From contig JAKAJJ010000003.1 in the NCBI GenBank assembly GCA_021813835.1, forward strand, positions 1 to 23,809: a stretch of DNA of 23,809 nucleotides, given 5' to 3'. Below are positions 512 through 20,310 of the stretch, one piece after another (positions within the stretch are counted from its first letter, which is position 1; every line of letters begins with the position of its first letter). Under the pieces are notes generated by a model. The model searched no databases, was not told the DNA's origin, and saw only the letters and a list, made by a program, of their open reading frames with translations. The DNA is from a bacterium. GTDB lineage: Bacteria > Patescibacteriota > Minisyncoccia > Phycocordibacterales > Phycocordibacteraceae. Made by a program: the position numbers and the translations under genes.

Positions 512-852
512 TTATTCTGTCGAACAGAAGCATCGAGATACGCATTCTGCCAGTTGATCTTGCGGCGGCGGTTCAGTTCCATGAGCAGAATGCCGGCCAT
601 GGCCGCCCATCGGCCTTCTCGGTGCCACGAAGTGAAGCGATACCAGCACGTTTTGCCGGAGCCATAGCGCTCGGGTGGGATATCCTCCCAGCGGCAGCCG
701 GTGGAGAGGACATAGAGGATGCCGTTCATCGTTTTGCGGTCATCGGAACGAGGCCTGCCGGTTCGCGCGGGCACCGGCATAAGCGGAGCGAGGAGGGACC
801 ATTCCTTGTCTGAAAGGTCTGACGGGAGCGGTTTGAGAGAAGACATGAGCAA
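457..852 (-). CDS. IS5-family transposase, N-terminal ORF (orfA)
   Basis: The sequence LPSDLSDKEWSLLAPLMP...GRPRSDDRKTMNGILYVLSTGCRWEDIPPERYGSGKTCWYRFTSWHREGRW is typical of the IS5/IS427-group orfA. The tracked ORF starts at TTG 852. ATG at 846 (MSSLKP...) is the more likely start. Confidence 0.85.
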   Translation of the reverse strand: MLMSSLKPLPSDLSDKEWSLLAPLMPVPARTGRPRSDDRKTMNGILYVLSTGCRWEDIPPERYGSGKTCWYRFTSWHREGRWAAMAGILLMELNRRRKINWQNAYLDASVRQNKKGVTIRLDTRDSRRKTA

Positions 853-2787: not shown

Positions 2788-3885
2788 ATGTCCTTCGCGT
2801 TCGGCGAGCGATTGCGTGCCGCGTTTGCGCCCCCGCGCTATCTCGCGCTTCCCCTGTCGGGCATCGACCTTTCGACAAGCGGCGTCAAGACCGTGCGTCT
2901 CGCCGAAAGCGCCCACGGCCTCATCCTCGCCGGATACGCGCAGGTGTGGCTGCCCTCCGGCGCGTTTTCCGACGGCGAGATCGTCGACCGCAAAGCGGTC
3001 GTCGCCGCGCTCGCGGAGGCCGCGAGAATTTCCGGCATCTTCACCGCGAACGCCGCCCTTCCGGAATCAAAGTCGTACCTCTTCGAGACCGCGGCGCCGG
3101 GCGCCGGGAAGGACGCCTGGCGCCTTTCGGTCGAACAGCATCTCGACGAATTCGTGCCGCTCGCGCCGCCCGAGACCGCGTTCGACATCGTCGGGGTAGG
3201 GAAGAACGCGGCAGGCGACACGCTCCTCGCGGGCATCGGGTTCGCGCGGCGCATCGTCGACGACACGGTTTCCGCCTATGACGAAGCCGGCATCCGCGTG
3301 CGGGCGCTTGAGGGCGAGACCTTCGCGATGGCGCGCGCGCTTTTGCCGCGCGGGGACGATTCCACCGTCCTCATCATCGACGTCGGCAAGACGACGACGA
3401 AAATCGCCGTCGTCGCGAAGCGCGTTCCGCGCTTCGCGACGACCATCGGCATCGGCGGCCATGCGCTCACGCTCGCGGTGCAGAAGCACTTCGGCGTGAG
3501 TGAAGCCGAGGCCCGCACGGTGAAAGCCGAACGCGGCATCGTGCCGAGCGCCGGCAACGAGGATTACCTTGCGGCCATGCTGTCGACCGTGTCCGCCATC
3601 CGCGACGAGATTTCCCGCCGCCTCGAGTACTGGCAGAGCAAAGCCGCGCTCTCCTCGGAGCATGAGCCGGTATCGCGCGCCATCCTCGCGGGCGGCAACG
3701 CCTCGGTGCGCGGGCTCCCCGAGTACCTCGAGGGAGCGTTCAAGGTCCCCGTCGCTACGGGCGACGTCTTCACGAACCTCGCGCCGCGCGATACCTGGCT
3801 CCCGTCCCTCGACTACACCGAGTCGCTCGCGTACGCGACGGCCATCGGCCTCGCGCTCTACGACGACACCCAACCGTATGTATAA
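2788..3885 (+). CDS. pilM: Type IV pilus assembly ATPase-fold protein PilM
   Basis: Length is 365 aa. Actin-like fold motifs are present (GIDLSTSGVKTV, LIIDVGKTTTKIAVV, AILAGGNASVRGLPEYL). It is followed by translationally coupled bitopic proteins, as in pilMNO loci. Confidence 0.8.
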   Translation: MSFAFGERLRAAFAPPRYLALPLSGIDLSTSGVKTVRLAESAHGLILAGYAQVWLPSGAFSDGEIVDRKAVVAALAEAARISGIFTANAALPESKSYLFETAAPGAGKDAWRLSVEQHLDEFVPLAPPETAFDIVGVGKNAAGDTLLAGIGFARRIVDDTVSAYDEAGIRVRALEGETFAMARALLPRGDDSTVLIIDVGKTTTKIAVVAKRVPRFATTIGIGGHALTLAVQKHFGVSEAEARTVKAERGIVPSAGNEDYLAAMLSTVSAIRDEISRRLEYWQSKAALSSEHEPVSRAILAGGNASVRGLPEYLEGAFKVPVATGDVFTNLAPRDTWLPSLDYTESLAYATAIGLALYDDTQPYV

Positions 3886-5691: not shown

Positions 5692-6390
5692 ATGACCGAA
5701 CGCGGGGATCCGCCCGGCGCCGCGTGCGTCGGCATCATTATGGACGGGAACCGACGCTGGGCGCGTTCGCGCGGCTTGCCGAGCATCGACGGACACACCG
5801 CGGGCTTCGCGAAGGCGAAAGAAATCATCCGCCACGCGTTTTCGCGCGGCATCGGCACCGCGATCCTCTACGCGTTTTCGACGGAGAACTGGAATCGCGC
5901 GCCGGAGGAGGTCTCCTATCTTATGCGGCTCTTCGCGAACGCTCTTGCGGACGAACTCGCCGAAATTTCCCGGGAGGGCATCCGCATCCGGTTTCTCGGC
6001 GACCTCGCGCGCCTGCCGGAGGAGCTCCGCGCCGCCGCGCGGAAACTCGAGACCGAAAGCGCCGCGGGCGGCGCGGAGAAGACGCTCGCCATCGCGCTTT
6101 CCTACGGCGGCCGCGCGGAAATACTCGCGGCGATGAACCGGCTTCTCGCCGCGGGGACACGCGCGGTCGGCGAGGAAGAGATGAATGCCGCCCTCTGGAG
6201 CGCGGGTCTGCCGGACCCCGACCTCGTCATCCGCACGGGCGGCGAGAAGCGCCTCTCCGGATTCCTCCCGTGGCAGTCGGTCTACAGCGAGCTTTTTTTC
6301 ACCGATACGCTCTGGCCCGATTTTTCGCGGGAGGAATTCGACGGCATCCTGGCCGGCTTCGCCGCGCGCGAGCGGCGGCGCGGGAAGTGA
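5692..6390 (+). CDS. uppS: Undecaprenyl-diphosphate synthase (cis-prenyltransferase)
   Basis: Signatures present: GIIMDGNRRWA, LYAFSTENWNRAPEEV, DLVIRTGGEKRLSGFLPWQSVYSELFF. Confidence 0.9.
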   Translation: MTERGDPPGAACVGIIMDGNRRWARSRGLPSIDGHTAGFAKAKEIIRHAFSRGIGTAILYAFSTENWNRAPEEVSYLMRLFANALADELAEISREGIRIRFLGDLARLPEELRAAARKLETESAAGGAEKTLAIALSYGGRAEILAAMNRLLAAGTRAVGEEEMNAALWSAGLPDPDLVIRTGGEKRLSGFLPWQSVYSELFFTDTLWPDFSREEFDGILAGFAARERRRGK

Positions 6391-6413
6391 CGGGAAGTGC
6401 TACGCTCCTAGGG

Positions 6414-7136
6414 ATGGAACTTCCCGTCCTCTACGAAGACGCGGACGTCGTCGCGGTCGCGAAGCCCGCGGGGATTGCGACGCATCCGGACGGACGCTCG
6501 AGCGCGCCGACCGCCGAGGATTGGTTCAAGGAGAAGTACCCTGGCGTAAAGCTCGAGCGGCCCTATGCGCACCGCCTCGACCGCGACACCTCCGGCGTCC
6601 TCGCGTTCGCGAAAAGCGCGCCGGCGCATGAATTCCTCCGCAAAGCGTTTACCGGCCGCGCCGTGCGGAAAACCTATCTCGCCTTCGTGTACGGCGTGCC
6701 GAAAGAACGGAAAGGAACTATCGATTTCGACATCGGCCGCTCGCGCAAGGACTTCCGCCTGCGGAGCGCCCAGCCGAAGGCGCGCGGGCGCCTGCGCGCC
6801 GCGGTGACGCGCTACGAAGTCGTCGCCGACGACGGCGCATACGCGCTCCTCAGAGTCGAGCCGGAGACGGGCCGGACGCACCAGATCCGCGTGCACCTGA
6901 AAGCCATCCACCATCCCGTCGTCGGCGACCCGCTCTACGCGCCGGAGCGCCCGCCGGCGCTCGGCGCGGAGCGCCTCGCGCTCCACGCCTATGCGCTCGA
7001 CCTGCCGCTCCCGTCGGGCGGGCAGGCGCGCATCCTCGCTCCGGTCCCCGCCGACCTCGCCCCCGCGCTCGCGCATTTCCCCTCCGCGCGCGGAAGATTT
7101 TCGGAAACTGCAGAAGGGCACCTTCTGCAACTGTAG
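6414..7136 (+). CDS. RluA-family pseudouridine synthase (short form, no S4 domain)
   Basis: ATG 6414 lies within tracked ORF 5724-7136; the upstream part of that ORF overlaps uppS and reads as Arg-rich noise. Motifs present: HRLDRDTSGVLAFAK (catalytic Asp), GRTHQIRVHL, GDPLYA. The last about 15 codons run through a hairpin, and the stop codon lies in the inverted repeat at 7134. Confidence 0.85.
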   Translation: MELPVLYEDADVVAVAKPAGIATHPDGRSSAPTAEDWFKEKYPGVKLERPYAHRLDRDTSGVLAFAKSAPAHEFLRKAFTGRAVRKTYLAFVYGVPKERKGTIDFDIGRSRKDFRLRSAQPKARGRLRAAVTRYEVVADDGAYALLRVEPETGRTHQIRVHLKAIHHPVVGDPLYAPERPPALGAERLALHAYALDLPLPSGGQARILAPVPADLAPALAHFPSARGRFSETAEGHLLQL

Positions 7137-7312: not shown

Positions 7313-9200
7313 CTATTGGACGATAGAATTAGCCGAGACGTATCCCGGGTCGGCCGGCGTTTCGGTCGTCGCCGGGGCGGCCGTCGCCGAGATCTGCGTG
7401 CCCGCAAAGCGGTCGTAGCCCGAGAAGGACGCGGCCCCGGTCAAGGCGGGCGCGCTGCCCTTCTGCGACGTCGACGGCGTAAAGGAGACCTGGAACGAAC
7501 CCTGCGCGCTTCCGCCCTGCGGGAAGTCGCCCGCATTCCACGTGACGGAGCGGGACGCGCCGTCGTAGGAGAAGGAGCCGGCGCCGGAGGTCTTTCCCGT
7601 ATAGGAAACGTAAGAAGGCAGGGTCGCCGTCATCGTGGCGCCGGCAAGAGCGCTTCCCAGGTCGCGCGCGCTCCAGACGACCGTATACGTCGTCGCCTGG
7701 TTGGCGCGCGGCGGAACGGGCCCCGTGTTCGCGAGCGTGCCCGACGCATGAAGGGCGGCGGCCGAAAGGACGACGGTGGTTTCCACTTTCGCGGTCTTCG
7801 TCACGGAGGCGTTCACCTGTTCCGGAACGTTCGCCTGCCCCACGCGCGTTCCCGACACCGAAATGGCGAAAGCGACGGAGGGCGACGCGGGAAGCGCATC
7901 CGCCGGCAGGGTCGAGAAGGTGAAGGTGCCGAGGCCCGTCGCGCCCGGGGGAAGCGACGCGAGCGACGGGTCGGTATCGCTGTCGAACACGACGGTATGC
8001 GTCGCGGACTGGTAGAAGCCGTTTGCCGTCTGGATGCTCGCGGGATCGACGGCGGAGCCCGAGACCGTCACGGCCACCGTCGCGTTCGTGACATTCGTCG
8101 CGAGCGTGTTGGCGTAGGAAAGAGTGACGGTCTGGAGGGAGCCGGGCGCGAGAACGAAGGTACCGGACGTGTCGCCGTTCACCGCAAGCGTCGTGCTGAT
8201 GAACGGCGCGGTTATCGTGACCGTCGCGTCCTGCGTCATATACGGCACCGCGATGGTCTGGTCGGACGGGCTGCTCGCCGTTCCCACGGTGAAATGGAAG
8301 ACGCGCTGTTCGTTGTCCTGTCCCGTGAGCGTGCCGGTAAGCGTGACGGTCTTCGTCGCGCCCGGGGGAAGCGTCCCGAGGAGAAACGCGGAATCGGAGA
8401 GCGGAAGCGAGGACGACGCGACCGAGAAGCCGAACGGGAATGCCGCGGAGAGGACGGCGTTCGCGAGCGGAACCGTCGCGTTGCTGCGAACGGTGAGCGC
8501 GAACGTGAGCGGCTTCCCGGACACGGCTTCGGAAAGCGAGTCGACCGAAAGGGAGAGCGGCGTCGAGGAAATGGCAAACGCGTAGGAGGTCTTCTTCACG
8601 AAGACGGCATTGCTGCCCGCCGTGCCGTAGGAAAGGGAAACCGGCATAGTAAGGGCTTGCCCCGCGGCGCCGAAAACGACCGCCTTCACCGAACGCATAA
8701 CGGTGGCGCCGGGCGCGATCTCGCCGAGATTCTCGGTATAGCGCGGATACGGCTGGAGCACGTTGTCGGCGCTCCGCGTGCCATCGGGGGAAATCGATCT
8801 CGAGCGTCGCGTTCTCGATGGCGACCGGATTCCGGTTCGTGATGGCGAGCGAGAGCGGGACGGTGTCGCCGCCGGCGATGGTCGTCGGCCCCTGGATGCC
8901 GATGTCGATCTTGTCGACCGAGACGGAGTTGCCGCCGAAGTAAAAGAAGTAGGCGGCGATGCCGAGCGCGACGAGGAAGAAGGCGAACGCGAACGCGAGG
9001 AAAAGCCCGGCGAGCCGCACATGGCGGTGGCCGAGGCGGGGGACGACGGGCGGCGGCGGCTTGTCGCCCCACTCATGCGGAACGGAACGCTCGTCGGCGC
9101 CGACGAGCGGTATGTCCATGGGGCGCGGCGCGGCATTCTGCGCATAGAGGCGCTCGCGGGCATGCTCAAGCGAGCTCACGTCGTCGGAGGAAGGGGGCAT
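7313..9200 (-). CDS. Membrane-anchored surface protein with several tandem beta-sandwich-like repeats, interrupted by a 1-nt frameshift at a G5/C5 run (8786-8790)
   Basis: The N-terminal part (from ATG 9200) is in the frame of tracked ORF 7329-9485. It reads MPPSSDDVSS...LAGLFLAFAFAFFLVALGIAAYFFYF (TM)...NRNPVAIENATLEIDFP. The remainder is in the frame of ORF 7313-9169 and reads DGTRSADNVLQPYPRYTENLGEIAPGATV... with recurring ..PPGAT..T.T.. modules. Outside these segments both frames translate to Arg/Ser/Pro-rich noise. Confidence 0.7.
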
Positions 9201-9222: not shown

Positions 9223-9792
9223 TCAGAGGCCCGACGCGGCGATGCCGCGATTGACGCGGGCGACGTATGCGGCGCGTTCGCGCGCAACCTCCGCGAGCGC
9301 GCCCGGCGTGAAGGCGCCTGCGCCGGCCGGAGCATCCCCGCCGTCGAGACCGAGGACGCGAAGCATAAAGAGCGCCGCGAGCACTTCGGCGGCATCGTGA
9401 AGCTCGGGGGGAAGCGTCGAAAGCGCGTCGAAAAATCCATACAGGATGGGAAACAGGGCGGCATCGCGCTCCTCCCCCGCAACAAGCCGCAACAGGAGTC
9501 CGGAGAACCGCGCCGCGCGAATGCGCGGCGCGGCGGCGCGCATGCCCCGGAACCTGTTCTCGGCGAGAACGGCGCCGGCGACGCGCCATTCTTCTTTCCC
9601 CCGCACGAGGACGAGGTCGCTCTCGGCGAACGTCGCGAGCGCGGCGGCGAGCTTCGCCCCCGGGCGGCGCAGGCCCTGCGCCCGCGCGCGCACGAGGCCG
9701 AGGTCGGCGGTGAGAAGCGCGAGGAGGACGTTCGCTTCGCCGAGCGGGGAACGGAAAAGCACGATGCCCCGCGTTTCGTACTTATGTCTCAC
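9223..9792 (-). CDS. recO: DNA repair protein RecO (short form)
   Basis: ETRGIVLFRSPLGEANVLLALLTADLGLVRARAQGLRRPGAKL is a RecO-type OB-fold N-terminus. The GTG start overlaps the ileS stop by 11 nt. Confidence 0.7.
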   Translation of the reverse strand: MRHKYETRGIVLFRSPLGEANVLLALLTADLGLVRARAQGLRRPGAKLAAALATFAESDLVLVRGKEEWRVAGAVLAENRFRGMRAAAPRIRAARFSGLLLRLVAGEERDAALFPILYGFFDALSTLPPELHDAAEVLAALFMLRVLGLDGGDAPAGAGAFTPGALAEVARERAAYVARVNRGIAASGL

Positions 9793-12700
9793 GGACGATG
9801 TCGAACCGCGCCGAACCGGTTGAGAGTTCGACCGCGTACTTCCCTTCCAGACGCATTTCGGGATGCACGACGTCCTTCGGCGAAAGATTTTCGCTCTTGC
9901 GCGCCTCGGCGACCGCGCGCGCGAGTTCGCGCGCGTCGCCCTCCCCCACGAGTTCCGGCGTGAGCGCCGTGTCGAGCGCGAGCGCGCTCGCGCGCGTCTC
10001 GACGCGCTTCACGTTCACCTCCTCGGCGAGGATCTGCGCGAGTTCGGCGGGAAGGTCGTCCGGGACCGAGAGCTTCGCGAGCGGCTGGCGCACCTTGATG
10101 CCTGCTTTCTGGCGCACCTCATGCGCCTCCGACGCGAGCGCGCGCACGCGCTCCATATCCGACAGGAGCTTCGTGTCGACGCCGCGCTTCCGGAATGCGA
10201 ACGTCCAGGCGCGGCCCCACGACGGCCACTCGGCCAAGTGCACGCTTTCCGGATCGTCCGCGGCGCGAACCGCCTGGAATACTTCTTCCGCGAGAAATGG
10301 CGTTGCTGGAGCCATAATGAGCGCAAACGTGTAAAGCACGTGCCGAAGCGTCGCAAGCGCCGCGCGTCTGTCAGCACTGCCCTCCTTGAACCGATCGCGC
10401 GAACGGCGCACGTACCACGCGGAGAGGTCGTCAATGAACGGCACGAGCGGCCGGGATGCAGAATTGAGTTCGTACGTCTCATATCCTTTCGTCGTCTCCG
10501 CGACAAGCGCATCGAGGCGCGCGAGTATCCAGCGATCAAGCGCATTGGTGCTCGTGCGCGCTCCCGGCGTGCCGTCGTTATGCAGTTCGTAGAACGCGCG
10601 CACGTTCCGGAGACGTCCGATATTCTTCTTCGCAACCTCATCCACGCCGCTTTCCGAGAACGCCAGGTTCTCCGCCTGTACGACAGGCGATAAGAGGAGA
10701 TAGAGGCGGAGCGCATCGGCACCGTGCTGTTCAACGATATGCATCGGATCCGGGTAGTTCTGGAGTCGCTTTGACATTTTCTTCCCGTCTTCGGCGAGCA
10801 CAATGCCGTTCACAATGACATTCTGAAAGGCGTTTTTGTGAAAGAGCGCGCCCGCGAGTACGTGGAGATAGTAGAACCACGCGCGCGTCTGGTCGATGCC
10901 CTCCGCAATGAACTGAGCCGGGTAGGTCTTCTCGAACCGCTTCCTGTTCTCGAACGGATAATGTACCTGAGCGTACGGCATCGAACCCGAGTCGAACCAG
11001 GTATCGAGCACGTCGGGAACGCGTAGGAGCGGTTCGCCTTTCTCGTTCACGAATTCCATCTCGTCGATGTACGGCAAGTGCAAATCGAGCTCGTAGTTTT
11101 CATTGTGCGGGAGCGGAACGAAATCGAGCGGGTGCACCGCGCCTGTTTTGAAATCGGACGTGCGCGCGACCTCCGCGATGACGCGCTTGTCGCCGCCCCG
11201 CGCGAGAGTCGCGAGCGATTCGAGGCCGATGCTGTGCGTCACGATGAGGATGCGCTTCCCCGAAACCGACGATTCGAGATCATAGATGAACGAGCCGAAG
11301 CGGCGCTTCACGTCGGCATAGCTTTCTCCGCCCGGAAAGGATTCCGTGAAGTCCGGAGCGCGCGTATCGCGATACGCGACGAATTCCGAAAATGGCTTTC
11401 CGGAGAGTTCGCCGAAATCGAGCTCGCGCAGGCGGTCGTCGTAGACGACCGCCTGCGGCGGGATGCCGAGCGCGTCCGCCACGAGTTCCGCCGTTTCCCG
11501 CGTGCGCAGGAACGGCGACGCGTAAATGGCGTCGATGCCGGCGCGGGCGAGTTTCCGGGCGGTCGTGCGCACTTCCTCCCTCCCCCGCTCGGTGAGGTTA
11601 TTGCTCGTCGGGTCGGAACTCACGATATTTTTCACGTTCTTCTCGCTCTCGCCGTGCCGCATCATAAAATACGCGTTCCCGGACTTCTTCGTATGCCGCT
11701 TGAGCTCGTCCACCGAACCGATGACCGTGAGATTTCCCTTCCCATCCTTCCAGATGGGAATGGCGCTCGCCCAGAACCGCTGGCGGGAGATTGACCAGTC
11801 GCGCGCGCCGTCAAGCCAATTCCCCCACCGGCCCTCTTTGATGTGCGCAGGCGACCACGAGATGCGTTTCGCATTCTCGATAAGGTTTCCCTTTATCTTC
11901 GTCACCGCCACGAACCACGACGAGGTTGCGTAGTTGAGGAGCGGCGTCTCGCAGCGCCAGCAGTGCGGGTACGCGTGCGTGATGTTCTCCTTCGCGAAAA
12001 GCAAGCCGTGTTCCTGCAGGTACTTGAGTACCGCGATATCCGTCCCGAGGCGGACAGCATCATCGTCCGAGCGCGGCTTCACTTCCCTGCCGGCGAAGGC
12101 GGTCACCTCCGGTTTCATCGTGCCGTCTCCATTCACGTGCTGCACGAACGGCAAGTCATATTTCTTGAGCAGTTCCCAGTCGTCCGCGCCGAACGCCGGC
12201 GCTTCATGCGCGATGCCGGTACCGTCCTCTGCCGTCACGAAATCCGCCGCGTACACTTTCCAGCCGTTCTTGCGATTCTTGAGCGACGGGTCATTCGCGT
12301 AATAGTCGAAGAGCGGCTCGTATTCGAGACCGACGAGGTCGACACCCTTCACCCGTTTTTCGATTGTGTGTTCAAGTACTGGTCCGAGATATCTTTCAAC
12401 GGAGATAGTTTTCGATATCTCGGTTTCTCGAGAGACAACGTACTCGATATCCTTTCCTACCGCGAGCGCGACGTTCCCGGGCAACGTCCACGGCGTCGTC
12501 GTCCACGCGAGCAGATATACGTCACCCGAGAGGCCGATCTTCTCCGGATGCTTCAGCTTGAATTTCACCGTCACCGCAATGTCCTTCACGTCCTTATATC
12601 CCTCCGCGACCTCTTGCTGAGATAATGTCGTTTCGCAGCGCGGGCAGATATGCATCGAGCGGTAGTCCTCGTACACGAGCCCTTTGTCGTAGACCTGCTT

Positions 12701-13177
12701 GAACACCCACCACACGCTTTCCATAAATGACGCGTCCATCGTACGATACGCGTGCTCCATATCGACGAAGCGGCCGATGCGCGGGATGAACGTCTTCCAG
12801 TAATCGACGTACTCGAGCACCTTGCTCCGGCATTGTTCGTTGAATTTCTCGATGCCGTAATCCTCGATGTCTTTTTTGTGCTTGAAACCGAGCTCCTTTT
12901 CGACGATGTTCTCGATCGGGAGGCCGTGCGTGTCCCACCCCCAGATGCGCGGCACGCGGTATCCGCGCATCGTCCAGAACCGCGGCACGACATCCTTGAT
13001 GACGCTCGCGACGATGTGGCCGTAGTGGGGCGTGCCGGTGGCGAAGGGCGGCCCGTCATAAAAAACGTATTCACCCTTCGGCGCCGGCTTTGCGAGCGTT
13101 TTTTCGAAGATTTTCTCGCGCTTCCAAAAGGCGAGCACCTCCTCCTCGCGCTTCGCGGCCTCCGACTTCTCTGCCAT
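9782..13177 (-). CDS. ileS: Isoleucyl-tRNA synthetase (eukaryote-like / type-2 architecture) carrying an internal histidine-phosphatase domain
   Basis: FYDGPPFATGTPHYGH (HIGH-type motif), WSISRQRFWASAIPIW, DTWFDSGSMPYA, FIAEGIDQTRAWFY and KKMSKR are all present. There is no Cys-rich C-terminal Zn domain. Residues about 501-690 (nt 11108-11677) form a PGAM-like domain; see findings. Confidence 0.95.
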   Translation of the reverse strand: MAEKSEAAKREEEVLAFWKREKIFEKTLAKPAPKGEYVFYDGPPFATGTPHYGHIVASVIKDVVPRFWTMRGYRVPRIWGWDTHGLPIENIVEKELGFKHKKDIEDYGIEKFNEQCRSKVLEYVDYWKTFIPRIGRFVDMEHAYRTMDASFMESVWWVFKQVYDKGLVYEDYRSMHICPRCETTLSQQEVAEGYKDVKDIAVTVKFKLKHPEKIGLSGDVYLLAWTTTPWTLPGNVALAVGKDIEYVVSRETEISKTISVERYLGPVLEHTIEKRVKGVDLVGLEYEPLFDYYANDPSLKNRKNGWKVYAADFVTAEDGTGIAHEAPAFGADDWELLKKYDLPFVQHVNGDGTMKPEVTAFAGREVKPRSDDDAVRLGTDIAVLKYLQEHGLLFAKENITHAYPHCWRCETPLLNYATSSWFVAVTKIKGNLIENAKRISWSPAHIKEGRWGNWLDGARDWSISRQRFWASAIPIWKDGKGNLTVIGSVDELKRHTKKSGNAYFMMRHGESEKNVKNIVSSDPTSNNLTERGREEVRTTARKLARAGIDAIYASPFLRTRETAELVADALGIPPQAVVYDDRLRELDFGELSGKPFSEFVAYRDTRAPDFTESFPGGESYADVKRRFGSFIYDLESSVSGKRILIVTHSIGLESLATLARGGDKRVIAEVARTSDFKTGAVHPLDFVPLPHNENYELDLHLPYIDEMEFVNEKGEPLLRVPDVLDTWFDSGSMPYAQVHYPFENRKRFEKTYPAQFIAEGIDQTRAWFYYLHVLAGALFHKNAFQNVIVNGIVLAEDGKKMSKRLQNYPDPMHIVEQHGADALRLYLLLSPVVQAENLAFSESGVDEVAKKNIGRLRNVRAFYELHNDGTPGARTSTNALDRWILARLDALVAETTKGYETYELNSASRPLVPFIDDLSAWYVRRSRDRFKEGSADRRAALATLRHVLYTFALIMAPATPFLAEEVFQAVRAADDPESVHLAEWPSWGRAWTFAFRKRGVDTKLLSDMERVRALASEAHEVRQKAGIKVRQPLAKLSVPDDLPAELAQILAEEVNVKRVETRASALALDTALTPELVGEGDARELARAVAEARKSENLSPKDVVHPEMRLEGKYAVELSTGSARFDIVRET

Positions 13178-13202: not shown

Positions 13203-14876
13203 TCACATTTTCTCGGGCGCGGGGATGCCGAGGAGCCGGAGACCGTTGGCGAGCGTGTGCGCGAGCGCGCGGGTGAGCCGCTGCTTGTACGCTTCTTCGG
13301 GAGAGCCGAGAACCTGCTCCTTCGCGTAAAACGCGTTCCATTCTCCCGCGAGTTCGGTGAGGTACGTGACGAGGAGGTTCGGCGCGCACTCGCGCGCCGC
13401 GCGCGCGGCTACTTCCGGATAGTGGACGAGGAGCCGCTCGACGGCGTACGGCGCGGCCGGTTCATCCGTACCGTTCCCCTCGCCTCCTCCGTACGCGAGG
13501 ATCTTCTTCGCGCGCACGAGCGCGTACTGCAGATAGGGCCCTGAGTCGCCCGCAAGCGACAGCGATTTCTCCGGATCGAAGATGATGTCCTGCCCGGGCG
13601 CCTGCCGCAGGATCATATATTTGACGGCGCCCACGGCGACCTGCTCGGCGATGAGCGGATCAGGATTCTTCTCGCGCACGAGATGCGTCACGTCCTCGAG
13701 AAAACCGGCCGCCGTAATGACGTTCCCCGCGCGCGAGGACATCTTGCCGCTCGCGAGCCGGAGGAAGCCATGCGCGACGTGCCGCGTTTTCGCGGCGATG
13801 AGCGGCGCGAGCTCCCCGAGCGCCGCAAGCACCGTCTTGAAGCGGCCCGTCTGCTCGCTGCCGGTCACGATGACGACGCGGCTGTTCGGCCAGCGCTCTT
13901 CCTTGAGGAACGCGAGGCCGATGTCCTTCGCCTCGTAGGTCGGCGTGCCGTGGCCCGTGATGAACACCATCGTGTGCACGCCCTTCGCCGTCCCGTCGTA
14001 AATCACCGCGCCGCCGCTCTCCTTGAAGATGCCTTTCGCGAGGCCGTCTTTGACGATGCGCAGGCCGCTCCCGACCGTGTCGCTGTCGAAAAACGTGAAA
14101 TCGAACTTCGTGCCGAATATGCGCCAGAGACGCCCGAACTCCTCCATCGAAACATCGCGGCCTTTGCGCCAGAGCGCCATAAGGGCGCGATCCTCTCCCC
14201 GATAGAGCTCTTGGTTGAGCGCGTCGATTTCCTGTTTCGCCTGCGGATCGTCCTCGTACGCGCGGGAGCCCTCGGCGTACGCTTCGCCGATCTCTTTCGC
14301 GCTCTCGGGCTCGGCGACGCCGCGCCGGCGGAGCGCCCAGAGCGCCTTCGCCACGTGCGGTCCGACGTCGCCGCCGAAGGTATCGCGGGCGACGGCGGCG
14401 CCGGCGTTCTCGGCGAGGCGCGACAGCGCCTCGCCGATGACGGAACCCATCAGATGCCCGAGGTGCATCTCCTTGAACGGGTTGGGGTTGCCGTATTCGG
14501 CGAAAACGCGCTGCCCTTCTTCGGCACTCCCCTTTCCCCACTCCTCGCCCTTCGCGTCCGCCTCGGCGACGAGCGCCGCGACCGCATCCCCGGAGAGCGC
14601 GATGTTGACGAACCCGGGCCCGGCGACGTCCGTCCGCTCGACCGATTCGCCGAGCGAACGCGCGAGGTGGCGCGCGAGTTCGTCCGCGAGTTCGCGCGGA
14701 TTCTTCCCGAGCACTTTTGCCGCTGCGAGCGCGGCATTTGTCGCATAATCCCCGTGCGCGGGGTCGCTCGGCCGTTCAACCGCAAACGCAATATCCGGCG
14801 CGCCCGCCTCTTCCAGCGCCTCGCCGACCGCTTTTCGGATCCGCTCCTCCATGGGGAAAAGTATACCAGTCCGCAT
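13203..14876 (-). CDS. argS: Arginyl-tRNA synthetase
   Basis: Length is 557 aa. The signature FAEYGNPNPFKEMHLGHLMGSVIGEAL is present, along with a DALR-type C-terminal domain ending ...LLGIPAPEKM. The likely true start is ATG 14852 (MEERIRK...), which has TGGTATACT 7 nt upstream. ATG 14876 lies inside a hairpin. Confidence 0.95.
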   Translation of the reverse strand: MRTGILFPMEERIRKAVGEALEEAGAPDIAFAVERPSDPAHGDYATNAALAAAKVLGKNPRELADELARHLARSLGESVERTDVAGPGFVNIALSGDAVAALVAEADAKGEEWGKGSAEEGQRVFAEYGNPNPFKEMHLGHLMGSVIGEALSRLAENAGAAVARDTFGGDVGPHVAKALWALRRRGVAEPESAKEIGEAYAEGSRAYEDDPQAKQEIDALNQELYRGEDRALMALWRKGRDVSMEEFGRLWRIFGTKFDFTFFDSDTVGSGLRIVKDGLAKGIFKESGGAVIYDGTAKGVHTMVFITGHGTPTYEAKDIGLAFLKEERWPNSRVVIVTGSEQTGRFKTVLAALGELAPLIAAKTRHVAHGFLRLASGKMSSRAGNVITAAGFLEDVTHLVREKNPDPLIAEQVAVGAVKYMILRQAPGQDIIFDPEKSLSLAGDSGPYLQYALVRAKKILAYGGGEGNGTDEPAAPYAVERLLVHYPEVAARAARECAPNLLVTYLTELAGEWNAFYAKEQVLGSPEEAYKQRLTRALAHTLANGLRLLGIPAPEKM

Positions 14877-15460: not shown

Positions 15461-16726
15461 CTATGCGAAGGATTCGGGGATGGGATGCGCGAGGGCGAGT
15501 TTCTTCATCTCCCGTTTTGCGCGGTTCACCGTCACGTCATCGCGCTTCGTGAGCACCTCGATCATGATCTCCGCGACGCGCGCCGCTTCTTTTGCAGTGA
15601 AGCCGCGGGTGGTCATCGCCGGCGTGCCGAAGCGGATGCCGGAGGGGTCCATCGGCTTGCGCGTATCATCCGCAATTGCGTTCTTGTTAAGCGTGATGCC
15701 CGCGCGGTCCAGAAGTTTCTCGGCCTCGCCGCCCGAAATACGAAACGATGTCCACACGTCGAGCAGGATGAGGTGGTTGTCGGAGCCGCCGGTAATCATC
15801 CGCGCTTTGTTCTTCTTGAAAACTTTCTCCATCGCGTGCGTATTCGCGATGATCTGCTTCGCGTACCTCTTGAACGACGGCCGGAGCGCCTCGCCGAAGG
15901 CGACCGCCTTCGCGGCGATCTGGTGCATGTGCGGCCCGCCCTGGAAGCCGGGAAATACGGCCTTGTCTATCTTCTTCGCGAGCTCCTCGCTCTCGCGCAC
16001 GAGAATCATCCCGCCGCGCGGGCCGCGGAGCGTCTTGTGCGTGGTCGTGGTCATGATGTCGAAGCCGTCGTCAAACGGATTCTTCGCCGCCTTCCCCGCG
16101 ATGAGCCCCGCGATGTGCGCGATGTCCATCACCGAAACGGCGCCCACCTCGCGCGCGATAGAGACGAACTTTTTATAATCCAACTCGCGCGGATATGCCG
16201 AGAAGCCGGCGAGAACGATTTTCGGCTTTATCTCCTTCGCCGTGCGCCGCATGGCGCCGTAGTCGATCTCGCCCGTTTCCACGTCCTTCATCTTGTACTG
16301 ATGGAAATTGAAAATCTTGGCGAGGTACGTCACGGGGTGGCCGTGCGTGAGATGCCCGCCGTGCGAGAGATCCATCCCGAGCACGGTGTCGCCCGGTTCA
16401 AGCAGGGCGAAATACATGGCGATGTTCGCGTTCGCGCCGCCGAGCGGTTGGACGTTCGCATACTTCGCTTTGAAAAGTTTCTTTGCGCGCTCGATGGCGA
16501 GCGTCTCCGCCTGGTCCGTGAATTCCTGTCCGCCGTAGTAGCGCTTTCCCGGATACCCTTCCGAGTACTTGTTTGTCAGGGACGACGCCATCGCCTCTTT
16601 CACCGCGCGCGAAACGTAATTCTCGCTCGGAATGAGCTCCAGCCCTTCCGCCTGTCGCTTCTCCTCGCCCACGACGGCGCGGTATATGTCTTTGTCCTCT
16701 TTGCGGATGCGTTTGTAACAGTCCAT
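15461..16726 (-). CDS. glyA: Serine hydroxymethyltransferase
   Basis: LELIPSENYVSRAV, YPGKRYYGG and TTTTHKTLRGPRGG (the PLP-lysine motif) are present. Length is 421 aa. Confidence 0.95.
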   Translation of the reverse strand: MDCYKRIRKEDKDIYRAVVGEEKRQAEGLELIPSENYVSRAVKEAMASSLTNKYSEGYPGKRYYGGQEFTDQAETLAIERAKKLFKAKYANVQPLGGANANIAMYFALLEPGDTVLGMDLSHGGHLTHGHPVTYLAKIFNFHQYKMKDVETGEIDYGAMRRTAKEIKPKIVLAGFSAYPRELDYKKFVSIAREVGAVSVMDIAHIAGLIAGKAAKNPFDDGFDIMTTTTHKTLRGPRGGMILVRESEELAKKIDKAVFPGFQGGPHMHQIAAKAVAFGEALRPSFKRYAKQIIANTHAMEKVFKKNKARMITGGSDNHLILLDVWTSFRISGGEAEKLLDRAGITLNKNAIADDTRKPMDPSGIRFGTPAMTTRGFTAKEAARVAEIMIEVLTKRDDVTVNRAKREMKKLALAHPIPESFA

Positions 16727-16728
16727 GA

Positions 16729-17718
16729 TTATTTTCTTTTTGGTTTTTTCGCCGCCCGGTGCAGCTTTTCGTTATAACCGCCGACAACGGAAAACGGGGC
16801 TTTGATGGTAGCGTGCGGATTGTAGTCGATAAGTTCTACAAATTTTGGCAGGAAAGTATCAAGCGACTTGAATGTTTTAGTGAATTTTACTTTCGGAAAC
16901 GGTCGCGGTTTGCGCTTGAGTTGCTCCCTCGCCTGCTCGCGATGGTCCTCATATATATGCAAGTCCCCGAAGGTGTGGACGAATTCTCCCGGCTCGCGGC
17001 CGAGTATTTCCGCGATTATCAGAGTGAGAAGCGCGTAGCTCGCGATGTTGAACGGCACGCCGAGGAAAATATCGGCGCTCCGCTGATACAACTGAAGGCA
17101 TACTTTCCCGTGTTTGATGTTCACCTGGTACAAGTTGTGGCATATCGGAAACCGCGCTCCTTCGCCCGGCTTGGCCATGCTGTAAAGATATTGCGGGTTC
17201 CACGCGGTGACGATCGTGTTGTGCGCATCCGGGTCTTTCCGGAGCTCCTCTATCACCCAGCCGAGCTGATCCACGGTCCGCTTGCCCTCCGCCGGCCAGC
17301 GTCGCCACAGCTCGCCGTAGATGTGGCGGAGCTCGCCGTGCTTTTTCGCGAACGCGGCGCTCTTCGCTATCTTCTCTATGAACGCCTCCTTCGTGAGCTC
17401 GGGCTCCTTCCCTTTTGCCACCTTTTCTTTGTAGATCTTGTAGGGGTAATCGTCCCAGATGTGCACGTTGTTCTCCACGAGGTATTTGATATTGGACTGG
17501 CCGGAGAGGAACCAGTACAGCTCGTGGAGAATGCCATTCCAATAGACTTTCTTGGTCGTGAGGAGCGGCAATCCTTGCGACAGGTCAAAACGGATCTGCC
17601 GACCGAAAACGCTGTAGGTCTTTATTCCCGTCCCGGCGTCCGTCTGCTCTTCACCGTTTTGAAGCGTGTCGCGCACGAGGTCCAGGTATTGGTGTTCGGG
17701 ATGGCGGGCTTTCTTCAT
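16729..17718 (-). CDS. Divergent thymidylate-synthase-fold protein (ThyA paralogue, Lactobacillus-type long form, altered phosphate-binding and C-terminal residues)
   Basis: ATG 17718 (MKKARHPEHQYLDL...) lies within tracked ORF 16729-17775. Conserved features: LLTTKKV, HELYWFL, PICH (Cys), [38 protein letters not shown]. Deviations from canonical ThyA are listed in the findings. Confidence 0.8.
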   Translation of the reverse strand: MKKARHPEHQYLDLVRDTLQNGEEQTDAGTGIKTYSVFGRQIRFDLSQGLPLLTTKKVYWNGILHELYWFLSGQSNIKYLVENNVHIWDDYPYKIYKEKVAKGKEPELTKEAFIEKIAKSAAFAKKHGELRHIYGELWRRWPAEGKRTVDQLGWVIEELRKDPDAHNTIVTAWNPQYLYSMAKPGEGARFPICHNLYQVNIKHGKVCLQLYQRSADIFLGVPFNIASYALLTLIIAEILGREPGEFVHTFGDLHIYEDHREQAREQLKRKPRPFPKVKFTKTFKSLDTFLPKFVELIDYNPHATIKAPFSVVGGYNEKLHRAAKKPKRK

Positions 17719-17722
17719 ATGG

Positions 17723-18316
17723 TTATTTATTTTTCTTCGCCGGTTTCCTTTTTGCCGGCTTTTTCTTCGGAACAACGGTCCGCTTCGGGGCGAAATGGTT
17801 CCAGTTGTTCTTCGCGAACCGCCCCGTGGTCCTGTAGGTGCGCGAGGGCGGTGACGATATCATCGAGAACATAATCTGCGCGATCTCCATGCCGGGGCGC
17901 AGAACGATAGGGATGTTGTTCTGGTTCGTTATTTCGAATGTGACGTTCAGAAAGTGCCCGGGGTTGATGATGCCGGCGGTGTTGTGCACCATGAGCCCGA
18001 TGCGGGCGAGCGAGGATTTTCCTCCGAGCTGTATGAGGTACTTGTCCGACCCGAAGAATTCCTTGGAAACGGCGAGTGCCGAGATGCCGGGATGCAGTAC
18101 GAATTCGTCACCATCTCCGATCTCTATCTCCCGCGGCTTCGCATAGTGCTTCCGTACGGGATCTATGACCATCGTGCCGGTGTCTTCATTCAAAACGAAT
18201 GTATTGCCCAGCCGGATGTCGTAGCTCACGGGTTGCAGCCGGGAGAGGTCGAACGGCTCAAGCGTGATGTCGCCCGCCTCCAGTGAACTCTTGATGTCGA
18301 CATCGGAAAGGAACAT
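17723..18316 (-). CDS. dcd: dCTP deaminase (Dcd family) with a polybasic C-terminal tail
   Basis: MFLSDVDIKSSLEAGDITLEPF..LQPVSYDIRLG, GGKSSLARIGLMVHNTAGIINPGH and VTFEITN (the Glu is retained) are present. The tail reads KRTVVPKKKPAKRKPAKKNK. Confidence 0.85.
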   Translation of the reverse strand: MFLSDVDIKSSLEAGDITLEPFDLSRLQPVSYDIRLGNTFVLNEDTGTMVIDPVRKHYAKPREIEIGDGDEFVLHPGISALAVSKEFFGSDKYLIQLGGKSSLARIGLMVHNTAGIINPGHFLNVTFEITNQNNIPIVLRPGMEIAQIMFSMISSPPSRTYRTTGRFAKNNWNHFAPKRTVVPKKKPAKRKPAKKNK

Positions 18317-18318
18317 GG

Positions 18319-18882
18319 CTAGACCTGGGTTTCCTCTCCGTGCGAGACGCGGCCGCCCTGGTGCTGTCCGCGGTAGCCGATAGCTTCGCCCTCAATTTTA
18401 TAAAACACGATGTTGCAGAAGCGCGCGCCGAGCTGGAGCTTCACCGGAAACGGGCTCAAATTCGTGAGACCGAAAGTGAGCGGTCCCGTATACCCCGGGT
18501 CGGTCTTCGTCGCAAGAAGGAGGAGGCCGGCGCGGAAGAGCGAGCTGCGCGGATAGACCATCGGCATCAGGTCAAGCGGCGCCGTGATCGTCTCGGCCGT
18601 CTGCACGAGATAATATTCGCCCGGCTTCACGATAAGTTCATCTTGCGTGTCGCCCTCTTTGAGGCGGAAGATTTCTTCGGTCGTCACGCCGCGGCGCTTG
18701 CCGAGACCGGCGGCGCCGTCGGCTTCAATGTAGGCGCCGCCCTCACTAATCTTGTGGACGGCGCCGAGGCGCAGGTCAATGCCGGTTCCTTCCGGATTGG
18801 AGAAATCGCGGCCGCCGAGTCCGGTAATAAGGTTCTCCTCTTTCATTCTCCGGACGACTTCCTTGATGCCGATGACTGACAT
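18319..18882 (-). CDS. Dcd/Dut-superfamily protein, probable dUTP diphosphatase (lacks the deaminase Glu)
   Basis: ATG 18882 (MSVIGIKEVV...) lies within tracked ORF 18319-19056. The motif is PRSSLFRAGLLLLATKTDPGYTGPLTFGLTNLSPFPVKLQLGARFCNIVF. The Asp of xDPGY is kept, but Gly replaces the Glu of the T(L/F)E(L/I) deaminase motif. Confidence 0.65.
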   Translation of the reverse strand: MSVIGIKEVVRRMKEENLITGLGGRDFSNPEGTGIDLRLGAVHKISEGGAYIEADGAAGLGKRRGVTTEEIFRLKEGDTQDELIVKPGEYYLVQTAETITAPLDLMPMVYPRSSLFRAGLLLLATKTDPGYTGPLTFGLTNLSPFPVKLQLGARFCNIVFYKIEGEAIGYRGQHQGGRVSHGEETQV

Positions 18883-18900
18883 CCTGCTAGTATACGGGAA
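18883..18900. promoter_or_regulatory. 18-bp divergent intergenic region with overlapping -10-like hexamers for both flanking genes
   Basis: The sequence is CCTGCTAGTATACGGGAA. TAGTAT lies 7 nt before folA ATG 18901. On the other strand, TATACT lies 6 nt before ATG 18882. The two hexamers share the palindrome GTATAC. Confidence 0.4.
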
Positions 18901-19428
18901 ATGCCAAAAGGTACAGATATTGACATCGCATACGGTTCGGGTCGGATTTCGCTTATTGCCGCTCTCGGGAAGCATCGGGAGCTCGGGAAGGACGGGCGGC
19001 TCCTGTGGCGCTTGCCGGACGATGTGCGACGGTTTAAGGAGCTGACGCGCGGCCACCCGGTCATTATGGGACGCAAGACGTGGGAGTCGCTCCCCGAGCG
19101 CTTTCGCCCGCTCCCTGGCCGCACCAATATTGTCGTCACGCGGCAGGCGGGATACGAAGCGAGCGGGGCGACGGTTGTTGACGGGCTGTCAGATGCCTTT
19201 CTCGCGGCACAGGATGCCCCGGGTTCACGGGAGACGTTTGTCATCGGCGGCGGCGAACTCTACGCGAGCGCTCTCCCCTACGCGACCCGCCTCTACCTCA
19301 CGCTCGTGGACGCCGCCGCCGAGGCCGACACCTTCTTCCCGCCGTACGAAACGGATTTCAAAATAATTTCGGATGAGCTCGGCGGCGGAGAACCGGCGCA
19401 CCGTTTCATTGCGCTCGAGCGAAGATAA
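18901..19428 (+). CDS. folA: Dihydrofolate reductase
   Basis: ISLIAALG, PVIMGRKTWESLP, LPGRTNIVVTR and FVIGGGELY are present. There is an N-terminal extension of about 14 aa relative to the usual MISLIAA start. Confidence 0.9.
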   Translation: MPKGTDIDIAYGSGRISLIAALGKHRELGKDGRLLWRLPDDVRRFKELTRGHPVIMGRKTWESLPERFRPLPGRTNIVVTRQAGYEASGATVVDGLSDAFLAAQDAPGSRETFVIGGGELYASALPYATRLYLTLVDAAAEADTFFPPYETDFKIISDELGGGEPAHRFIALERR

Positions 19429-19430
19429 GT

Positions 19431-19458
19431 AAAAACGCGGCAGCCCCAGGGCTGCCGC
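19431..19458 (-). terminator. Intrinsic terminator for thyA, between convergent folA and thyA
   Basis: A 9-bp stem GCGGCAGCC (19437-19445) / GGCTGCCGC (19450-19458) has a 4-nt loop. On the minus strand it is followed by CGTTTTTAC. Confidence 0.6.
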
Positions 19459-19473
19459 TGAACGTCCAAGGAT

Positions 19474-20310
19474 TCACACCGCCACAGGCGCCAAGATGGC
19501 CGGCCACGGATCGTACCCTTCGAGTTTGAAATCTTCGTACTTGAAACCGAAGATGTCCTTTACGTCGGGGTTGAGCTTCATCGTGGGGAGCGTCCGCGGC
19601 TCGCGCGAAAGCTGTTCCTTTACCTGTTCCAAATGGTTCAGATACAGGTGTGTGTCGCCACCGGTCCAGATGAACTCGCCGGGTTCGTAGCCGCACACCT
19701 GCGCGAACATCATAGTGAGCAATGCGTATGAGGCTATGTTGAACGGTACTCCGAGGAACGTGTCGCAGCTCCGCTGATACAGCTGGCACGAGAGCTTGCC
19801 ATCTGCCACGTAGAATTGGAAGAGGCAGTGACACGCCGGCAACTTCATCTTCGGCACATCAGCAGGGTTCCATGCCGTCACAATGATGCGTCGCGAATCG
19901 GGGTCCTTTTTGAGAAGCTCGACTGCATCAGCGATTTGGTCGATTGGCTCGTTGCGATAGAAACCGCTGCTTTCCGCCGTCGAACCCCGTCTATACACAT
20001 AGTTCGGCCAGGTTCGCCACTGGTAGCCATAGGCCGGCCCGATGTCACCGCTCGCGTCCGCCCACTCGTCCCAGATTGTGACGCCGCGTTCCTGTAGCCA
20101 GCGAATGTTCATATCGCCGCGTAAAAACCACAAAAGCTCGTAGATGATGCCTTTCAGGAAGACTTTCTTCGTTGTGAGGATCGGGAATCCCTTTGCGAGA
20201 TCGAAACGCATTTGGTATCCGAAGATACTGATGGTTCCCGTACCCGTACGGTCTGACTTCTTCACGCCGTGTTCTTCGATGTGCCGGAGTAAATCAAGGT
20301 ACTGTTTCAT
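19474..20310 (-). CDS. thyA: Thymidylate synthase (canonical ThyA)
   Basis: [70 protein letters not shown] and the C-terminus ...ILAPVAV are present. AGGAGG lies 5 nt upstream of the ATG. Confidence 0.95.

Follow-up and report, generated by a model that had tools for sequence, protein, structure and literature searches.

A histidine phosphatase domain nested in a patescibacterial isoleucyl-tRNA synthetase, and its relatives within and beside other ileS genes

Why should an isoleucyl-tRNA synthetase (IleRS) carry a whole phosphatase within the sequence of its own catalytic domain? The question is raised by the ileS gene of a patescibacterium (GTDB lineage Minisyncoccia; Phycocordibacterales; Phycocordibacteraceae), which lies in a stretch of 23,809 nucleotides, here called the window, that covers positions 1 to 23,809 of contig JAKAJJ010000003.1 (assembly GCA_021813835.1). 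A first-pass annotation, made from the letters of this DNA alone, had noticed there an apparently intact, PGAM-like histidine phosphatase domain nested in the synthetase, a feature that looked like a singular oddity. Comparative analysis places it instead as one member of a large IleRS-associated phosphatase clade, in which the domain occurs split from the synthetase, nested in it, in tandem and at several sites. Membership in such a recurrent clade makes the case for a real functional link stronger, yet shows that a covalent tether is not obligatory.

The nested domain and its host synthetase

The window gene is a Paceibacteria/Kaiserbacteria-like ileS that encodes an intact type-2 IleRS in one open frame of 1131 residues and, as had been reported, without stop codons. 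The protein matches the NCBIfam equivalog model TIGR00392 well above its cutoff (841.8 against 621.4 bits), in two stretches around the insert, and Pfam orders its domains as tRNA-synt_1, His_Phos_1 (PF00300, residues 504-661), tRNA-synt_1 again and then Anticodon_1. The His_Phos_1 match has E=1.1e-34 in the full protein (120.3 bits; cutoff 21.7 bits) and E=6.5e-36 (124.3 bits) when the excised insert is searched alone, values that rule out a chance match, so that both profile searches and the intact frame bear out the nested architecture. The closest solved relatives of the synthetase are the type-2 enzymes of T. thermophilus, eukaryotes and P. megaterium; its editing region aligns to 1ILE/1WK8, and the colinearity with type-2 IleRS claimed for both sides of the insert was upheld by alignment to 1ILE. 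Where close relatives without the insert have 7 residues, the window IleRS has about 195, and comparison with them puts the probable limits at about residues 502-696 (Table 1). The insertion first placed at 11108-11680 was thus real, while its limits needed correction, the segment being slightly longer C-terminally. The third-codon-position G+C content (GC3) and the codon usage of the insert are indistinguishable from those of the remaining gene, and no open reading frame (ORF) on the opposite strand across it matches any family.

The four catalytic signatures listed in the first-pass annotation, with codon positions for H508 and H648 that proved exact, are all present and complete the set of the branch-1 histidine phosphatases: the RHG motif (R507/H508/G509), the second Arg (R558), the acidic donor (E585) and the second His (H648). 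Across 49 close homologs R507, H508, N514, R558, T562, E585, E618 and H648 are invariant; 135 domain copies among representative sequences show the seven-residue catalytic pattern RHNREEH, as do 65 of the 67 ORFs reconstructed from the GTDB loci described below. An AlphaFold2 (AF2) model of the isolated domain reached a predicted local distance difference test (pLDDT) score of 92.2 and a predicted template-modelling score (pTM) of 0.89, and within the full-length model no part is predicted better than this domain (pLDDT 85-97). A Foldseek search with the domain model returned 4IJ6 (E=6e-14, template-modelling (TM) score 0.79) together with 6S2Q, 9MMH, 1H2E and 6E4B, at TM scores of about 0.8. 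The neighbours by sequence and fold are small phosphatases, comprising PhoE (1EBB/1H2E), iPSP1 (4IJ5/6), a mycobacterial hydrolase (6S2Q), the riboflavin-pathway HFP (9MMH) and CobC. By profile, residue set and superposable alpha/beta fold, the domain is a member of the branch-1 histidine phosphatase superfamily (PF00300).

The description of the domain as PGAM-like was right as to superfamily and should not be taken to mean a mutase. It scores 96-100 bits against dPGM_arch (cutoff 225) and stays far below the cutoffs of the other dPGM models, and it lacks the dPGM-specific residues, with E585-L-D-F-G in place of E-R-H-Y-G and H648-S-I-G in place of H-G-N; for these reasons the term is best read as phosphatase-type (PhoE/iPSP1). 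A SixA identity (TIGR00249) was rejected at 38-41.7 bits against a cutoff of 74.5, with a match to the N-terminal 75 residues only, and the insert falls below every curated NCBIfam equivalog cutoff, including those of dPGM, SixA, CobC and PspA. No other part of the protein evolves as fast among the 49 close homologs, where pairwise identity averages 0.41 in the insert and 0.73-0.81 in the synthetase body; it has a substrate-cap region (residues 595-614) and C-terminal helices (655-684) that are hypervariable, at 2.3-3.2 bits of entropy, against 0.45-0.9 bits at the junctions. It is very probable that the architecture is intact and that the phosphatase is active.

In the numbering of the T. thermophilus IleRS (1ILE) the insert enters between residues 482 and 488, inside the third connective peptide (CP3), which has been delimited as residues 473-534 in the C. 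albicans enzyme (PMC7191050) and 459-526 in the yeast one (PMC7955072). This subdomain is peripheral and its topology varies among IleRS structures, with a zinc motif in T. thermophilus only (PMC7191050), and in human IARS1 it is exposed and serves for docking (PMC13439101). CP3 follows directly on the DW-SR-R-WG linker, part of the lining of the tRNA-CCA pocket (PMC7955072); the insert is located at the distal (tip) loop of CP3 and not next to this linker. The earlier statement that the phosphatase sits inside the catalytic core therefore holds topologically, within the Rossmann-fold sequence, but not structurally, the site being the tip of a peripheral, solvent-exposed and variable subdomain. 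Neither do other IleRS have just a short variable linker at this point, as had been stated, for the relatives carry there a Cys4 zinc knuckle. This motif, Cys-x2-Cys...Cys-x-Cys around a 7-residue loop, is kept in all 71 insert-less close relatives, and the four Cys are all replaced in the window IleRS and in each of the 49 close insert-bearing homologs. The rule that the insert always replaces the knuckle holds for those 49 homologs and is refuted by the wider species set, in which 17 of 67 insert-bearing ORFs retain it; because of these 17, the domain is concluded to have entered the knuckle loop, with loss of the zinc site as a secondary event. The sole backbone positions outside CP3 that partly co-vary with the insert state are residues 68, 110, 118 and 149-150 (nt ~12726-12976; distribution overlap 0.2-0.46), which belong to the first Rossmann half and may show where CP3 or the phosphatase packs against it.

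Table 1. Features of the window, with positions in the whole stretch and the basis of each assignment
Feature	Positions	Strand	Basis
ileS, 1131-residue type-2 IleRS with nested phosphatase domain	9782-13177	-	Single unbroken ORF; TIGR00392
Residues 1-476: first Rossmann half, CP core, CP1 editing domain, CP2, DWSISRQRFW linker	11750-13177	-	Colinear with 1ILE residues 11-482; tRNA-synt_1 covers residues 14-499; contains invariant columns
HYGH (HIGH motif), residues 51-54	13016-13027	-	Sequence
CP3 subdomain, residues 477-722	11012-11749	-	Block differing between insert-bearing and insert-less orthologs; limits from PMC7191050, PMC7955072
N-terminal junction motif KKSGN, residues 497-501	11675-11689	-	Near-invariant on very different IleRS backbones; entropy 0.7 bits
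Inserted His_Phos_1 domain (PhoE/iPSP1-type histidine phosphatase), residues ~502-696	11090-11674	-	PF00300, fold model, end-to-end match to stand-alone phosphatases
R507-H508 of RHG motif; H508 predicted phospho-accepting nucleophile	11654-11659 (R507 11657-11659, H508 11654-11656)	-	Invariant in 49/49 close homologs
R558, second phosphate-binding Arg, SPFLRTRET motif	11504-11506	-	Invariant; aligned to PhoE motif
E585, predicted general acid	11423-11425	-	Invariant
H648, second catalytic His, VTHS	11234-11236	-	Invariant
C-terminal junction, residues 685-705	11063-11125	-	Entropy 0.45-0.9 bits; kept in 67/67 GTDB ORFs inspected
KMSKR signature loop of synthetic site, residues 800-804	10766-10780	-	Sequence; K800/K803 invariant
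argS, upstream neighbour	13203-14876	-	Pfam; synteny also in L002, L003, L004, L087, L088
recO, downstream neighbour	9223-9792	-	Pfam RecO_N; synteny kept in relatives
IS4/5-family transposase fragment (DUF4096)	457-852	-	
PilM (type IV pilus, relevant to DNA uptake)	2788-3885	+	
RluA-type pseudouridine synthase with long N-terminal extension	5724-7136	+	
618-residue Ser/Thr/Ala-rich protein, no Pfam match	7313-9169	-	
SHMT	15461-16726	-	
Long ThyA-like protein with insertion, 348 residues	16729-17775	-	
Two DCD/dUTPase-like genes	17723-18316, 18319-19056	-	
Second, canonical ThyA	19474-20310	-	

Recurrence, split forms and exchange of the CP3 module

An identical protein is encoded on an independent ENA contig, and PF00300 lies at the same place in 49 of the 120 best homologous clusters (58-73% identity; ENA, NCBI, JGI and Logan; contigs up to 503 kb), which are labelled Kaiserbacteria, Minisyncoccota or Parcubacteria and named only 'class I tRNA ligase family protein' or 'isoleucyl-tRNA synthetase'. 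A scan of GTDB with one genome per species confirmed 552 stretches, and the best 80 of these 552, to which all further details refer, contain the full cassette without exception, at 41-67% identity. Their taxa are Kaiser-, Zambryski-, Nomura-, Vogel-, Lloyd- and Taylorbacteria and other Paceibacteria, and 67 ORFs were reconstructed from them, with one phosphatase domain each. Several GTDB loci (L007, L008, L010 and similar) are titled 'uncultured Candidatus Saccharibacteria' (TPA) and one (L027) 'Bacillota bacterium', which are probably generic or mis-assigned labels and not a wider taxonomic range. The junction motifs (T/V)KKSGN-Y...RHGE and DF-PLPHN--YELD(L/F)H-PYID are kept on very different IleRS backbones, and this conservation across divergent backbones indicates a single ancient insertion at the CP3-tip site. 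The search for the same insertion point among homologous IleRS, suggested at the outset, has in this way found a shared site with homologous junctions.

These data bear on trivial origins of the architecture as well. That it might be an artefact, whether an assembly chimera, a frameshifted pseudogene or two genes merged by gene calling, is next to inconceivable in view of the single open frame with colinear IleRS on both flanks, of the identical protein from an independent assembly, and of the same architecture in hundreds of independent metagenome-assembled genomes (MAGs), on contigs up to 0.5-1 Mb; recurrence across independent assemblies settles the matter of a chimera. An intein or homing element was rejected too, in agreement with the first-pass annotation. 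There is no Hint-family Pfam match and no endonuclease, the whole segment folding as His_Phos_1, and splice-junction residues are missing, given that the insert starts with A/T/K-Y-F and that the conserved P-H-N at its end is followed by E/T/D/R/G and not by a nucleophile. The match in GC3 and codon usage with the remaining gene excludes a recent foreign acquisition, and no viral carriers of the cassette were found in IMG/VR. A perfect 12-nt inverted repeat has its two arms at the C-terminal CP3 boundary (11014-11025) and at the N-terminal junction of the insert (11670-11681); it is present in this sequence only, the 67 other loci match a shuffled null, and as a mobility signal it was discarded as coincidental.

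An exhaustive search of 1.84 billion representative sequences with the insert as query gave 29 matches below 1e-30. Most of the best 150 were IleRS or IleRS fragments in which the domain is placed ~30 residues before D-WFDSG, and no other host protein occurred among the top matches. A word-indexed search with the insert alone did not return insert-bearing IleRS, even the identical one (P0001), among its best 120, whereas the exhaustive search found such IleRS. Some of these enzymes contain two tandem copies in CP3, for which identities within the first position (d1-d1, 41-52%) and within the second (d2-d2, 39-47%) compare with ~25% between positions (d1-d2), so that the two copies are, on this pattern, ancient and mutually divergent paralogs. 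Extra copies lie in other enzymes after the equivalent of window residue 744 (between WFDSG and KMSKS) or 870 (in the loop before the anticodon-binding domain), in one IleRS a copy is found just past the second Cys pair, and a truncated IleRS has four His_Phos_1 copies. Six assemblies contain a two-site form of 1419 residues, with contigs that reach 1.06 Mb. The catalytic residues are kept in essentially every copy at all sites. Multi-copy IleRS with two to four His_Phos_1 domains include P0245, P0256, P0266, P0272, P0346, P0358 and their relatives. In this line, a truncated IleRS ORF of 1066 residues from JGI (P0372) accommodates three foreign in-frame domains: a module like the IS200/REP-associated tyrosine transposases at residues 326-472 (editing region), His_Phos_1 at 680-854 (CP3) and a GNAT domain at 935-1063 (after WFDSG). 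This case and the NCBIfam family ileS_w_GNAT suggest that IleRS loops of the candidate phyla radiation (CPR) are especially prone to take up entire enzymes.

The closest stand-alone relatives are P0243, which is 47% identical to the insert, and its family. All four close stand-alone members examined are encoded directly upstream of an insert-less, zinc-form ileS in the same orientation, at distances of 59, 4, 11 and 11 bp, and a more distant one is located between argS and ileS. Split-form loci share the slot of the window gene, argS...ileS-recO-(CLIPPER-like)-proS, and since the window ileS occupies the same argS-ileS-recO slot as insert-less orthologs, it appears to be the housekeeping copy. 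The stand-alone proteins can be aligned with the insert over their whole length, the junction-proximal motifs GN-Y..RHGE and F-P...N-DYE included, and they end in F.P..xN.DYE, which is related to the C-terminal junction of the insert. Mean identities are 38.5% between embedded and adjacent forms, 41% among embedded ones and 30% to other free His_Phos_1 proteins, from which the embedded and adjacent forms group apart with 64% bootstrap in a neighbour-joining (NJ) tree. Three states of one locus can thereby be recognised: ileS alone (L004), a phosphatase gene followed by ileS (L087/L088) and the nested form (window, L002, L003). Alignment and gene order show the stand-alone gene and the nested domain to be a fusion/fission pair, and the same comparisons show the domain to belong to a distinct IleRS-associated phosphatase clade. 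In the split-form loci (L088 3949-4913; the P0403 contig; L087 5909-7483) argS and the phosphatase gene are separated by a Pif1-family helicase gene. Just upstream of the phosphatase-ileS pair there is also a gene for a HAD-family hydrolase, and in L088 one for a PemK toxin as well.

The distribution of the insert does not follow the synthetase that carries it. On backbone NJ trees of 817 columns with CP3 excluded, drawn from a hit set biased toward the query, the presence of the insert takes 14 parsimony changes (10-17 over 100 bootstraps) against 37 with shuffled labels, and clades that mix insert-bearing and insert-less enzymes reach 99-100% bootstrap. The closest insert/no-insert pair tested occupies the same syntenic slot in different MAGs and is for this reason considered orthologous; two paralogous ileS copies with gene conversion are ruled out for this pair as the source of the mixed clades. 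Insert/no-insert pairs are 85-97% identical along the protein but 27-60% across residues ~460-720, at the DNA level their backbone is 76-91% identical while CP3 alone is unalignable, and all state-diagnostic residues fall at positions 477-494 and 701-720. Distances measured on the cassette follow those on the backbone only weakly (rho 0.38), and both measures give the same nearest neighbour in 5 of 47 cases; two example pairs have cassette and backbone identities of 89% vs 77% and 47% vs 90%. The simplest reading would be that lineages have repeatedly exchanged the entire CP3 module by homologous replacement, and the trees and pairwise comparisons together show CP3, with or without the insert, apparently behaving as a recombining block among close relatives.

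What the phosphatase may do

The explanation that we moderately favour as a whole is that of an intact IleRS with an IleRS-dedicated accessory phosphatase, and a genuine functional link between the two enzymes we regard as likely. The IleRS would aminoacylate normally. In the branch-1 chemistry predicted for the insert, a phosphomonoester would be held by R507, R558 and H648 and attacked by H508, E585 would protonate the leaving group, and the phospho-His would then be hydrolysed. Specificity would come from proximity or docking to IleRS, and the target would be a phosphate on something that blocks or accompanies IleRS function. We infer a dedicated activity because the association is kept split, nested and multiplied while the substrate cap is hypervariable. 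Conjectured substrates are IleRS itself, phosphorylated at a residue such as the KMSKR serine, a tRNAIle end with a 3'- or 2'-phosphate, or an active-site ligand that bears a phosphate; any one of them, when named, is at best unlikely, and as conjectures they draw no positive support from the acidic surface, from a literature that yielded no precedent or from the defence models, which gave no match.

Several observations weigh against the dedicated phosphatase or narrow its form. The net charge of the domain is about -6, acidic like that of free-living homologs and with no RNA-binding signature; RNA-binding electrostatics were indeed rejected, as embedded domains are no more basic than the free ones. 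No precedent was found in the literature for branch-1 histidine phosphatases acting on tRNA ends, and neither the insert nor the complete protein matched any family of the PADLOC-DB defence models. The full-length AF2 model has a pTM of 0.43 and a pLDDT of 65.6 for the synthetase core, with the Rossmann core poorly predicted, so that the placement near the tRNA acceptor end and the adenylate foreseen in the first-pass annotation is conjectural. Moreover, the split form shows that covalent positioning is not required and would fit a diffusible substrate equally well, NJ bootstraps of 55 vs 12 give no clear preference for the adjacent gene as ancestor or as derivative, and the bias of the hit set bears on the backbone trees.

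Some of these observations are shared by a more prosaic explanation, a generic PhoE-like small-molecule phosphatase merely co-expressed with ileS, as operon partner or in-frame passenger, and serving the general metabolism of a reduced genome. Its best matches are precisely small-metabolite phosphatases (PhoE, iPSP1, CobC and the riboflavin-pathway HFP), its surface is acidic like that of free homologs, the split form needs no tether, and source databases annotate the relatives as PhoE. We nonetheless judge it unlikely, as the domain is found in three or four different IleRS loops, in tandems and in adjacency, with IleRS as sole host among the 150 best representatives, when expression economy would favour far easier terminal fusions; furthermore, a dedicated metabolite enzyme should conserve its cap, which is here the most variable region, and close relatives manage without the domain. 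The hypervariable cap speaks likewise against one defined effector in an allosteric sensor, where a phospho-metabolite in the phosphate pocket would signal to the second Rossmann half and the KMSKS region and adjust aminoacylation to the energy or phosphate state of the cell, catalysis being a secondary matter. A loop insertion with conserved, apparently rigid junctions is a classical form of ligand-domain coupling, but the full catalytic set, with E585 and both His invariant, goes beyond the needs of binding, and the split form cannot pass a conformational change through the backbone, all of which makes a sensor quite improbable.

The patchy distribution and the incongruence of cassette and backbone would suit a tolerated or selfish passenger, that is, an upstream gene captured in frame that replaced the zinc knuckle as stabiliser and spreads through the conserved ileS flanks with no benefit for the host. 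In the same sense can be read the loss of the Cys4 knuckle in this lineage, the permissiveness of CP3 and the transposase-like and GNAT domains of P0372. However, catalytic residues remain invariant over hundreds of copies at ~41% background identity, the 17 of 67 insert-bearing ORFs that keep the knuckle argue against any replacement, codon usage is fully ameliorated, and there was no sign of an endonuclease, of intein motifs, of conserved repeats at the boundaries or of viral carriers, so that a passenger of this kind is very improbable. A last and doubtful possibility is a repair or immunity module, in or beside IleRS, that would reverse hostile phosphorylation aimed at IleRS function. It might undo the hit of a Hip-like kinase on the KMSKR serine, restore a (pyro)phosphorylated tRNAIle 3' end or disarm a phosphorylated inhibitor of the active site, and would explain the fast evolution outside the catalytic core, the tandem copies and the swapping of CP3 cassettes, as in conflict genes. 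If true, it would represent a second 'proofreading' hydrolase in a CP insertion, with the logic of CP1 editing but directed against phosphate damage.

Genomic surroundings and comparison with known systems

In the window, the start of recO overlaps the 3' end of ileS by 11 nt (9782-9792) and argS stops 25 nt before the ileS start, and argS-ileS-recO looks like one tightly packed transcription unit that is kept in relatives. Further upstream a dense thymidylate/one-carbon cluster (15461-20310, minus strand) contains the SHMT, ThyA and DCD genes listed in Table 1, and in relatives argS-ileS is preceded by ThyA-DCD-(Tmk/DHFR)-SHMT; the presence of ThyA and DCD in duplicate might point to a modified-nucleotide pathway. 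The counterpart of the 618-residue protein gives weak CLIPPER matches in relatives, always after recO.

The proteins described here were already public under generic names. Our full-text literature search found nothing on IleRS or other aminoacyl-tRNA synthetases (aaRS) with a histidine phosphatase, with PGAM or with insertions in CPR/Patescibacteria, in accordance with the initial statement that no characterised aaRS of this architecture was known, and the IleRS-phosphatase architecture itself is, as far as that search goes, undescribed, widespread and uncharacterised. The tie takes several forms (operon neighbour, several loops, tandem) across hundreds of uncultivated Paceibacteria species, and such persistence suggests that selection maintains a phosphate-removing step linked to isoleucine charging, a step that no textbook pathway predicts. 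Once identified, the substrate could point to a further level at which tRNA or synthetase quality is controlled, to regulation or to antitoxin defence in CPR. For synthetase engineering, CP3 supplies a permissive site already validated by nature, together with a naturally occurring split/fused pair, and the locus documents how a subdomain of an essential, highly conserved gene is exchanged as a module.

Outside the insert, the window IleRS is colinear throughout with type-2 bacterial IleRS (T. thermophilus 1ILE/1JZQ; P. megaterium IleRS2 8C8U), with which it shares HIGH/KMSKS, the CP1 editing domain, CP2, the flanks of CP3, the anticodon-binding domain and a DUF5915-type C-terminus. Unlike the T. 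thermophilus enzyme, it has 195 extra residues at the CP3 tip and no Cys4 zinc site. With PhoE (G. stearothermophilus YhfR), iPSP1, CobC and HFP the insert has in common its fold (TM ~0.8), size (~190-210 residues) and catalytic residues, and it departs from the PhoE/iPSP1 group in being 24-27% identical to it, embedded in or beside IleRS, and provided with a hypervariable cap. A His_Phos_1 domain of PhoE/CobC type fused to a nucleic-acid enzyme is already known in the bifunctional RNase H/acid phosphatase (NF005567, Rv2228c-like). This family is the second-best NCBIfam match of the insert, at 89-92 bits against a cutoff of 326 that leaves it outside the family, and RNase H-fused relatives are among its nearest free homologs. 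For an extra enzyme domain in IleRS there is the precedent of NF040702 ('ileS_w_GNAT'), to which the window IleRS does not belong, with 331.6 bits vs a cutoff of 1999 and no acetyltransferase domain detected by Pfam.

The CP1 editing domain of IleRS, ValRS and LeuRS is a hydrolytic domain inserted at a connective-peptide position of the Rossmann fold, and apart from it we know of essentially no catalytic domains of unrelated enzymes nested in the Rossmann fold of bacterial aaRS. CP1 is thus the nearest conceptual precedent for a second active site within the catalytic domain, although it is universal in its family, has another fold and cleaves aminoacyl esters, whereas the insert is lineage-specific and optional, lies in CP3 and is by its relationship a phosphoryl-transfer enzyme.

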